Positions 62,064-64,000 of a DNA stretch of 64,000 nt are shown here, piece by piece. The translations under genes and the position numbers were made by a program. Source of the stretch: Escherichia coli. GTDB taxonomy: Bacteria; Pseudomonadota; Gammaproteobacteria; Enterobacterales; Enterobacteriaceae. Position 1 is the first letter of the stretch; each line of letters opens with the position of its first letter. The stretch is from NCBI RefSeq assembly GCF_045037415.1, contig NZ_CP173438.1, one strand, 5' to 3'. The notes below the pieces were generated by a model. That model was not told where the DNA came from. It worked only from the letters and a program-made list of their open reading frames with translations, and ran no database searches.

Positions 62064-62169
62064 CACGATGTCTGAATCCTTGCCAAAAGTACTGCTGGCA
62101 CTATACCAGAGAATGAACATACTGGATTGCTCCAGTGTTGTGAATGAACGGTAACGCAATAAAACATAT

Positions 62170-63486
62170 TTACTGCAATTCTTTGGCCGGTTCTTTTACG
62201 TACAACAACGCCAGCATCGACAGCAACGTGCCTCCACCCAGATACCACGCCGGAGCCGTCAGACTATCCAGCAACACGATGGATTGCGTAGCGAAATATT
62301 GAGCAAAACCGCCAAAGATTGCCACACCAATGCTATAAACCAGCGCAAAACCCAATGCCCGAATCCGTTTCGGCAACAGTTCAGAGATCAACAACATCAC
62401 TGGCACACCGCCAAGCGTGGTAAAGCTGACCATCACGAAAACCACCGTCAGCAACATGCCAGGGCTTGGGTAATTCACCAACAGCCAGAATGACGGCCAG
62501 CTACAGAGAAGCACCATCACACGGGAGATTAAAATCAGCTTTTTACGCCCGACCGAATCGCACAACATCCCCACAAGCAGCGCACCCACAAACGTAACAA
62601 CGCCCGCCAGTAACATCGCTGCATGAGAATAATGTTGAGGCATCGCCAGATACTTCGCCGCCCAGGTGCCGTAATAAAAGAGGGAGATATAGGTTGCGAC
62701 CGTGCTACCAATAGCGAGTAAAACGCCATTAACGATAGTCGCCTTATGTTGCAGGAGCAGAGAAAACGCGCTTTCGCTGGTAGCAGCTTTTTTATTGCGC
62801 ACAGGCTCAGGTACGTCATTTTCCAGGCTCAGACGCAACCAGCAACCGATAGGTGCTAATAACACACCAATAAAAAACGGCACACGCCAGCCCCATTCTG
62901 CCATTACGGTTTCTGAACCTGTGGCGAACGGTAGCCATGCGCTTAAACCTAAAGCGACAACACCGCCAAAAGTTGTTGCCAGGCCTTGAGTCGCCAGTGA
63001 CCAACTGCTGTAAAAGCCACGACGATTTGCCGGAGCTGACTCCACCAGTAGCGACATTGAAGCCCCGACTTCACCACCTGCCGCAACGCCCTGAATCAAA
63101 CGCGCCAGCACCAGCGTTGCGGTTCCCCAATAGCCCGCCGTTTCATACGTCGGTGCGATGCCGATCATCAGCGTACCGAGGCTCATCAGAGCAATAGTGA
63201 ACACCATCGCCGGTTTACGCCCGAAGCGATCGGCCCAGGCACCAACGATAATCCCACCGAGCGGACGCATAAAAAAGCTCACACCAAACGTTGCAAATGC
63301 CAGTAACAGCGCGACGTTATGATCGGCACTGGGTGGGAAGAAAAGCGTACTGATATAGACCACAAAAAAGTTGTAAACGCCAAAATCAAAAAATTCGAGC
63401 GCATTGCCAAACGCCGAGGCAAAGATCACCCGCCTGCCGCTGGGCTTTTTCTTCACACTCACGGTTTCATTTACGATCGCCGTCAT
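62170..63486 (-). CDS. MFS transporter, metabolite:H+ symporter-like (438 aa, about 12 TM segments)
   Basis: N-terminal [15 protein letters not shown] and [10 protein letters not shown] motifs typical of MHS-family MFS symporters; AAGGA Shine-Dalgarno before the ATG. I do not recognise a K-12 gene at this position. Confidence 0.8.
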
Positions 63487-63528
63487 TCCATGTTCCTTGC
63501 CAAAAAGTGTTGTTGTGTGTTGTTTTAT

Positions 63529-64000
63529 TTATTGCAGCCAGGCTTCAACCAGTGCGCCCCAGTAGCTGCTTGCCGGGACCAGGCTTGCATCGTTAAAGTC
63601 GTAACCGGGGTTATGCACCATGCAGGAACCTTCCCCGACATCGCCATTACCGAATAACAGGAAACCGCCTTTGGGTTGGGCCTCCAGCATGAAAGAGAAA
63701 TCTTCACTGCCCATCAGGGGTTTGATGCCAAACTCAGCCCGATCTTCACCAAATGTTTTGCACGCCACCTGCCAGGCGAAGCGCGCCATCTCCTCGTCAT
63801 TTACTAATACCGGTGTACCGTTAACATGCGTAACCTCAGCCGTAGCGCCAAAGCTGGCAGCCTGGGTTTGTGCAAGAGCAGGAATACGGGTCAGAAGAAG
63901 TTGTCGGGTATCGCGGCTAAGAGAGCGGACACTGATTTTCATCTCAGCACTGTCAGGAATGACGTTAGCCGCCTCACCCGCAACAATGCTGCCGACGGTA
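63529..64000 (-). CDS. 3' end of an M20-family amidohydrolase (aminoacylase / hippurate-hydrolase-like); gene continues past the right edge
   Basis: C-terminal 157 codons read without a stop from the window edge to the stop at 63529, ending ...GEGSCMVHNPGYDFNDASLVPASSYWGALVEAWLQ, a pattern I associate with M20D amidohydrolases; same strand and 42 bp upstream of the MFS gene. Confidence 0.55.
   Translation of the reverse strand, partial: TVGSIVAGEAANVIPDSAEMKISVRSLSRDTRQLLLTRIPALAQTQAASFGATAEVTHVNGTPVLVNDEEMARFAWQVACKTFGEDRAEFGIKPLMGSEDFSFMLEAQPKGGFLLFGNGDVGEGSCMVHNPGYDFNDASLVPASSYWGALVEAWLQ

Follow-up and report, generated by a model that had tools for sequence, protein, structure and literature searches.

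Which genes lie upstream of fabR in Escherichia coli, and were they gained by some strains or lost by others? The question is raised by the stretch of E. coli DNA analyzed here (the window, 64,000 nucleotides of contig NZ_CP173438.1). Upstream of fabR and on its strand, it carries a gene for an MFS transporter and, at the edge, the 3' end of a gene for an M20 aminoacylase, a pair missing from K-12. Our comparisons indicate that this two-gene operon has long resided in the genus Escherichia and that the short form, in which fabR directly adjoins sthA, was made by one deletion event. The intergenic region between divergent fabR and sthA that textbooks give for K-12 would then be a deletion scar and not the ancestral Escherichia state.

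The extended locus was read from E. coli SK1144 (locus L001; window coordinate = L001 coordinate + 49999), which, like many other genomes, is 100% identical to window positions 62000-64000. The gene order given there by PGAP is btuB, trmA, yijD, fabR, 'citrate-proton symporter', 'M20 aminoacylase family protein', 329 bp of non-coding DNA, the divergent sthA and oxyR, and the complete M20 gene (L001 13530-14696) encodes 388 aa. The features on which the argument turns are as follows.

61416..62066, minus strand: fabR, 216 aa, flanking core gene (PGAP start ATG at 62066; NF008402 FabR, 413.6 bits for a cutoff of 151)
62067..62169, minus strand: spacer of 103 bp between the transporter gene and fabR, with a predicted sigma-70-like fabR promoter inside
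62147..62204, minus strand: 58 bp kept in K-12 and missing in Salmonella, left edge of the proposed deletion scar (from blastn and alignments)
62170..63486, minus strand: MFS transporter of the MHS type, 438 aa, second gene of the operon (from Pfam and NCBIfam)
63487..63528, minus strand: intercistronic spacer of 42 bp, with a CA-rich tract and an AAGGA Shine-Dalgarno sequence
63529..64000, minus strand: M20 aminoacylase (ILR1/YxeP-type), first gene of the operon, cut by the window edge so that the C-terminal 157 of its 388 residues are present
62205..64000, no strand: in-window part of the 2.7-kb segment (L001 12207-14907), in place of which K-12-type genomes have 74 bp of unrelated filler

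Gain or loss of the operon

The initial annotation had taken sthA and fabR to be divergent neighbours in K-12. This is indeed the case in K-12 JM83, where they are 330 bp apart with neither operon gene between them. It had also placed an MFS symporter-type gene at 62170-63486 on the fabR strand with the end of an M20 gene 42 bp further, in agreement with the listing of open reading frames (ORFs). The pair was claimed to be the only extra coding content of the window, and when the complete window was compared with 75 kb of K-12 by local megablast, 62205-64000 was likewise the sole stretch adding genes. The upstream region of fabR is thus occupied as described, but sthA has not been replaced: rightward extension in SK1144 recovers the whole 388-aa hydrolase and then sthA and oxyR, sthA sitting 329 bp past the hydrolase start and being displaced by 2.7 kb. 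Similarly, the pair is non-K-12 content, but the polarity is that of a deletion in the K-12-type haplotype, with no insertion in this strain. Nor is the pair rare or new: PGAP annotates it in some 1500 complete genomes, and it had already appeared in a listing of 2010.

Among 5426 complete E. coli genomes, the 2.7-kb operon segment is found in 1507 (about 28%) and the 74-bp filler in 3918 (about 72%). The two states are mutually exclusive and jointly account for 5425 of the 5426 genomes, the filler being found once per genome and only at the fabR-sthA locus (in one genome, at two places). The pair is thus a clean, nearly biallelic presence/absence marker, which K-12, BL21 and most E. coli do not carry. 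Identity to the window is at least 99% in 566 carriers (SK1144, for example), 95-99% in 543 (Nissle 1917, UM146, ATCC 25922) and 90-95% in 398 (O157:H7), and both products are annotated by PGAP in all the carrier rows listed. Two of the 1509 segment-matching places are on records labelled as plasmids, which could be mislabelled chromosomal contigs.

The pair has been catalogued before. Genes c4924-c4926 of CFT073 were listed in 2010 as adjacent non-K-12 genes (SAC no. 14) with the guess 'Citrate metabolism', in a table that scored the pair absent from O157:H7 (PMC2831201); unlike this scoring, O157:H7 genomes carry a copy with 94% identity. In the RefSeq annotation of CFT073, examined separately, the order is sthA, C_RS23275 (the M20 gene, c4924), C_RS23280 (MFS) and fabR, and oxyR is c4922; from gene order only, C_RS23280 is probably c4926. 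The two proteins have the same accessions in CFT073 and in Nissle, a close B2 relative with 97.6-99.6% nucleotide identity to the window.

The direction of the change can be read from what K-12 has kept. It lacks 2.7 kb of the carriers, with 74 bp of unrelated filler in place, and retains the whole fabR-proximal spacer and, beyond it, the final 35 bp of the transporter ORF; together with the 23 bp that follow the stop codon, these make up 58 bp (62147-62204). Salmonella was the one outgroup read for polarity. There, fabR is next to sthA with a spacer of 198 bp, and homology to E. coli ends at ATTGTGAATG, 23 bp from the transporter stop codon. Because K-12 retains 58 bp of operon-state sequence lacking in Salmonella, its layout is best explained as a deletion scar. 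Moreover, all four aligned non-carriers (K-12 and three others, from different backgrounds) have one and the same junction and filler, which argues that the short form arose once. The order fabR-MFS-M20-sthA is also found in E. albertii and in contigs with MFS proteins that the sources name E. ruysiae and E. whittamii.

One could instead suppose that a recent, strain-specific islet was inserted between fabR and sthA and that the layout of K-12 is the ancestral empty site. Indeed, fabR adjoins sthA in both K-12 and Salmonella, and the nearest non-Escherichia homologues are betaproteobacterial, so that the genes must have entered by transfer at some time. However, the locus is occupied in three further Escherichia lineages, the 58 bp of operon-derived sequence in K-12 have no counterpart in Salmonella, and the alleles have diverged further (dS up to 0.4-0.55) than a recent arrival would allow. 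The segment also has a native composition (coding G+C of the pair 52-54%, for 52.5% in the window) and shows none of the marks of a mobile genomic island, namely an integrase or transposase, a tRNA/att junction, flanking repeats or deviant G+C. No mobility or regulator gene is annotated between fabR and sthA in SK1144 (no integrase, transposase or tRNA), and no target or flanking repeats were found at the segment borders. A recent insertion is already contradicted by these data and keeps hardly any credence. The pair would rather have entered Escherichia by a single acquisition, probably from a Betaproteobacteria-like source and minus the LysR regulator common there.

Two observations sit less easily with an old resident removed by one deletion. 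Firstly, the origin of the filler is unexplained: its best local score against the 2.7-kb segment is 33, shuffled sequences giving a mean of 28.6 and a maximum of 38. Secondly, the short haplotype is present in strain TUM1586, where aceK is directly beside iclR and no yjaA is annotated; we read this strain as F-like (arpA and yjaA lacking), and the deletion allele is thus not confined to one clean clade. SMS-3-5 and 042 were also scored negative for the pair in the 2010 survey (PMC2831201). The deletion allele must therefore have spread by recombination or lineage sorting.

Other differences from K-12 were seen in or near the window. About 2.5 kb between aceK and iclR, where PGAP calls espL4 in K-12, are missing at window 4131-4154; we take this gene to be arpA, one of the Clermont markers. 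Strains of phylogroups B2 and F typically lack arpA, and the window is probably from a B2 strain, in line with the large group of genomes that match it at 100%. At 21891-22174, within the sensor kinase gene zraS by coordinates, some 300 bp are only 69% identical to K-12 between flanks at 96-97%, which looks like allelic replacement by recombination. The spacer of an rRNA operon at 54668-54938 holds tRNA-Ile and tRNA-Ala (SK1144 annotation), versus tRNA-Glu in K-12. In CFT073 (NC_004431.1 4685450-4688014), manD (D-mannonate dehydratase) and an MFS transporter gene lie between argH and oxyR and are missing in SK1144 and K-12; this is another two-gene insert of an enzyme plus an MFS protein near the operon locus.

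Conservation and families of the two products

Six lineages were compared (SK1144, Nissle, O157:H7, E. albertii, and the E. ruysiae and E. whittamii types). Both ORFs are full length in all six, except that the M20 gene of E. albertii stops two codons early; in strain NBRC 107761 this is a TGG-to-stop change (..EA-stop for ..EAWLQ-stop) that is probably harmless. In pairwise comparisons, the transporter has a dN/dS of 0.02-0.05 and the hydrolase one of 0.03-0.07, with dS up to 0.55, which indicates strong purifying selection on both genes. The segment diverges unevenly, in a strongly mosaic pattern. In the centre of the transporter gene (L001 12690-12850, window 62689-62849), the window allele differs by 17-22% from the O157:H7, E. 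albertii and E. ruysiae-type alleles, and E. albertii shows 0% divergence from the window allele over parts of the hydrolase gene (L001 13440-14120 region). This pattern points to recombination between Escherichia species at the locus. That the pair is a decaying, functionless remnant could be argued from its loss in 72% of genomes without obvious harm, its lack of a dedicated regulator and its apparent silence unless TosR is overproduced, but the intact reading frames of the six lineages, the annotation of both products throughout the listed carriers and above all the selection signal already contradict this idea, which we consider barely tenable.

The M20 hydrolase is firmly placed in its family. 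The full protein scores 358.3 bits on TIGR01891 'amidohydrolase' (cutoff 153.75), the fragment in the window alone reaching 79.9 bits, and matches both PF01546 Peptidase_M20 (residues 72-384, 8e-44) and an inserted PF07687 M20_dimer domain (184-279, 1.7e-12), so that the M20 assignment made from the partial ORF was correct. B. subtilis YxeP, Arabidopsis ILL2, a Staphylococcus M20 enzyme and an N-alpha-acyl-glutamine aminoacylase are homologous to it from end to end (E values of 1e-63 to 1e-71), the best matches in the PDB being YxeP (1ysj), ILL2 (1xmb) and AgaA (6slf). The motifs HACGHD (C100, H102), QPAEE (E134, E135), GMHN (H161) and VHNP (H361) are identical to those of YxeP 1ysj in the alignment, and we take these residues to be the metal ligands and general base known from published structures. 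Its N-terminus, MIEHYIRGFEEELREIRHQIHENPELG, has no signal peptide, and the enzyme should therefore be cytoplasmic.

The transporter matches the Pfam families MFS_1 (residues 26-387, 8.5e-28) and Sugar_tr (21-221 and 240-388), the two in which the initial annotation had expected it, and a crude hydropathy scan gives about 11-12 separate hydrophobic segments. Members of the MHS family are proton-coupled importers of organic anions and osmolytes.

Relatives were searched among GTDB representatives (one genome per species). Within the best 80 M20 matches, the closest proteins outside Escherichia are from Silvimonas (63% identity), Bordetella and Paraburkholderia (58%). Further Burkholderiales, Pseudomonas and Alphaproteobacteria come next at about 47-57%, the Burkholderiales taken together spanning 50-58%. 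These 80 include no other Enterobacteriaceae, the only other member of the Enterobacterales being Acerihabitans (51%). In at least nine non-Escherichia loci from among the matches listed (Burkholderia, Paraburkholderia, Pseudomonas and others), an MHS homologue with 36-45% identity lies directly 3' of the M20 gene on the same strand. Five of these nine loci have a candidate divergent regulator ORF upstream, of about 300-340 aa, and all four that were scanned are of the LysR type; such partners were observed only in Burkholderia, Paraburkholderia and Pseudochelatococcus loci. The other neighbours, judged by reading their sequences, are heterogeneous and suggest no pathway. These recurring pairs define a conserved unit of regulator, amidohydrolase and importer, of which Escherichia has the last two only. 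A search of a set of 5.8 billion proteins gave, among the matches listed, near-identical E. coli entries only and no functional lead.

Control regions of the operon and of fabR

The region shared divergently with sthA, 5' of the hydrolase gene, comprises 211 bp at 27% G+C and is better conserved than synonymous sites. It contains a conserved inverted repeat, TTTTATTGATGG-N16-CCATCAATATAA (L001 14739-14778, which would be window 64738-64777), some 45-80 bp before the hydrolase ATG; this repeat is a candidate operator for a regulator. A second pair of half-sites, TTATTCAC and GTGAATAA, is 154 bp apart (L001 14707-14721 and 14876-14890). Across the whole fabR-sthA region, no Rfam family matched at E<=1.

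In an RNA-seq study of CFT073 from 2018, c4924 ('putative hippuricase', new tag C_RS23275) rose by 6.6 log2 upon overproduction of the PapB-family regulator TosR, which is predicted there to bind AT-rich DNA and to antagonise H-NS/Lrp-mediated regulation (PMC5956150). Induction by TosR fits the 27% G+C region in front of the hydrolase gene.

Nissle, O157:H7 and E. albertii show 100% identity over the 42-bp intercistronic spacer, against differences of 4-11% in the codons next to it, and the spacer is nearly invariant across Escherichia. Its mRNA-strand sequence is AUAAAACAACACACAACAACACUUUUUGGCAAGGAACAUGGA-AUG, in which a CA-rich tract precedes two GGA motifs, and the terminator scan flagged no hairpin in it. 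That it could be a translational control element of the Hfq or CsrA type is purely speculative. The 12-nt string TCCTTGCCAAAA (mRNA sense TTTTGGCAAGGA, with the Shine-Dalgarno sequence) occurs exactly at 62077-62088 and 63494-63505, just 5' of the fabR and transporter starts; chance alone would give about 0.3 such matches in 3 kb, and this may be a coincidence.

As had been noted, the transporter stop is close to the candidate starts of fabR: 103 bp from the ATG at 62066, 49 bp from the old start of a 234-aa form and 10 bp from the TTG of the longest ORF (62159). The longer ORFs are disfavoured by a 1-bp indel that E. albertii has between the ATG at 62066 and the alternative starts further up. 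The predicted sigma-70-like promoter, TTCACA-17-TATGTT (62144..62116, minus strand), is the sole promoter-like match of the scanned region. Its -35 box is the last block conserved with Salmonella, inside ATTGTGAATG, and the 103-bp spacer is kept in carriers and K-12; for this reason, the core promoter of fabR is probably the same in both haplotypes. Between transporter and fabR, no hairpin with an uninterrupted T-tail was found that could be an intrinsic terminator; two weak hairpins with poor T-tails overlap the predicted promoter and the leader, and folding of the fabR leader is not unusual (z = -1.6). Read-through from the operon into fabR is thus possible in carriers. In the cattle isolate RM13322 (NZ_CP050498.1 3169697-3174805), fabR and the 5' part of yijD are lost, yijD being marked partial and no fabR being annotated; it looks like a natural fabR-null strain.

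Proposed function and comparison with known systems

We propose, as a reading that we consider moderately probable, a quiet operon whose MHS-type symporter would import an anionic amide that the cytoplasmic M20 enzyme would split into an amino acid and an acid. The AT-rich region shared divergently with sthA would drive the two genes, M20 first, then the 42-bp spacer and the MHS-type MFS gene. The transporter may bring in, by proton symport, a carboxylate-bearing amide, probably an N-acyl-L-amino acid or a similar conjugate, and the metal-dependent hydrolase would cut the amide bond to release the free amino acid and a carboxylic acid. Expression in laboratory conditions is probably poor, possibly owing to silencing at the AT-rich promoter, and fabR would probably keep its own promoter, some transcripts possibly reading through from the operon. 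The uptake-and-hydrolysis cassette suggested by the initial annotation thus remains a plausible reading that fits family membership, a cytoplasmic enzyme and the recurrence of M20-then-MHS pairs in distant Proteobacteria.

Several points weigh against this proposal. The activity of the one protein and the transport by the other are predictions from family membership, and import rather than export is a family-level expectation only. On the transporter side, the best NCBIfam match, TIGR00883 (metabolite/H+ symporter, residues 27-416), reaches 324.2 bits for a cutoff of 443.45, the second, TcuC-like NF011656 (tricarballylate/proton symporter), 287 for 445, and a further one 213 for 550. With scores this far below curated cutoffs, the PGAP name 'citrate-proton symporter' is not earned, and the protein is better described as an uncharacterised MHS branch. 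The hydrolase is about equally distant from YxeP, ILL2, AgaA and 4EWT (E values within the range given above) and reaches no NCBIfam equivalog cutoff (CpsA 336 for 500, DoeB2 322 for 550), so that specificity is not transferable and neither the acyl nor the amino-acid part of the substrate can be named. The Escherichia segment encodes no regulator gene, and no sigma-70 promoter upstream of the M20 gene passed the scan, hand scoring giving weak 8-of-12 candidates. Finally, the published top-25 table of the TosR study holds c4924 but not the transporter (PMC5956150). Our literature search found no biochemical study of either protein. As substrates, hippurate, acyl-glutamates and N-acetyl amino acids are all conceivable and citrate is unlikely.

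Among more specific proposals, one could think of a hippurate hydrolase (EC 3.5.1.32), with B2 and O157 strains importing hippurate, a major co-metabolite in urine and gut, to yield glycine and benzoate. The M20 protein bears the names 'hippurate hydrolase' (IMG and UniProt-derived) and 'putative hippuricase', uropathogenic lineages are among the carriers, and a 2026 preprint on Klebsiella enzymes assigns hippurate hydrolases to peptidase family M20 and counts hippurate among the main constituents of urine (10.64898/2026.07.27.739834). On the other hand, these names are automatic transfers with no equivalog model reached, no Klebsiella or Campylobacter protein is among the best 80 relatives, and the enzyme is equally close to those specific for N-acetyl-, IAA-amino-acid and acyl-glutamine substrates. 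E. coli is also classically regarded as hippurate-negative. We regard this proposal as unlikely.

The same M20 fold could serve an Abg-like salvage of an acyl-glutamate, a folate fragment or a small peptide, the enzyme being a carboxypeptidase and not a deacylase. It matches the carboxypeptidase CpsA (336 bits) and the structure 3io1 of an aminobenzoyl-glutamate utilisation protein (2.4e-35), and the design of regulator, M20 hydrolase and importer is that of abgRABT. In addition, the LysR regulators beside two pairs, in Burkholderia and Paraburkholderia, score best on NF007307/PRK09791, which we take to be the AbgR model. However, the CpsA score is under its cutoff of 500, 3io1 is much more distant than YxeP, ILL2 and AgaA, the transporter is of the MFS and not of the AbgT family, and the AbgR identity of PRK09791 is presumed. 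Salvage of this kind is, in our opinion, rather improbable.

Citrate or tricarboxylate utilisation, suggested by the second-best NCBIfam match (TcuC, 287 bits), by the PGAP product name and by the 'Citrate metabolism' label of 2010 (PMC2831201), is very improbable: the TcuC score is far under 445, the partner gene in Escherichia and in nine distant loci encodes an amide hydrolase and no citrate or tricarballylate enzyme, and citrate metabolism has no step for an M20 aminoacylase. Neither of the names given to this pair in databases, 'citrate-proton symporter' and 'hippurate hydrolase', is thus supported.

A bolder extension of the proposed import and cleavage of an amide, which we hold to be quite improbable, would make the operon a silenced catabolic route for a host-derived conjugate that abounds in urine or gut, a niche nutrient of B2 and O157 strains. 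If true, a conjugate such as hippurate, phenylacetylglutamine or N-acetylated amino acids would be a nitrogen or carbon source. Induction of the operon would also raise FabR, because no terminator separates it from fabR-yijD, and substrate availability would be tied to the control of membrane unsaturated fatty acids, a link lost in K-12-type strains. In any case, uropathogenic, probiotic (Nissle) and O157 strains are sensible places in which to look for the substrate of the pair.

A parallel can be drawn with abgRABT of E. coli K-12, which takes up and hydrolyses p-aminobenzoyl-glutamate. Both combine an importer with a cytoplasmic M20 hydrolase that frees, or here would free, an amino acid, and the non-Escherichia pairs likewise have a divergent LysR regulator. 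The systems nevertheless differ in type: AbgA and AbgB subunits with AbgT in the one, a single M20 protein with an MFS/MHS transporter and no regulator in the Escherichia locus in the other. At the level of proteins, the hydrolase shares full-length homology, a two-domain architecture and motifs with YxeP (1ysj), ILL2 (1xmb), 6slf and the hippurate hydrolases of C. jejuni and Klebsiella, and the best NCBIfam matches of the transporter are, over its full length but below cutoff, to the MHS family (TC 2.A.1.6), that of TcuC, CitA, KgtP, ProP and ShiA. Lastly, CFT073 c4924-c4926 are orthologous genes at the same locus, with no essential difference. The operon is thus no new kind of system, and belongs with the ordinary, long-catalogued accessory segments of a known kind.

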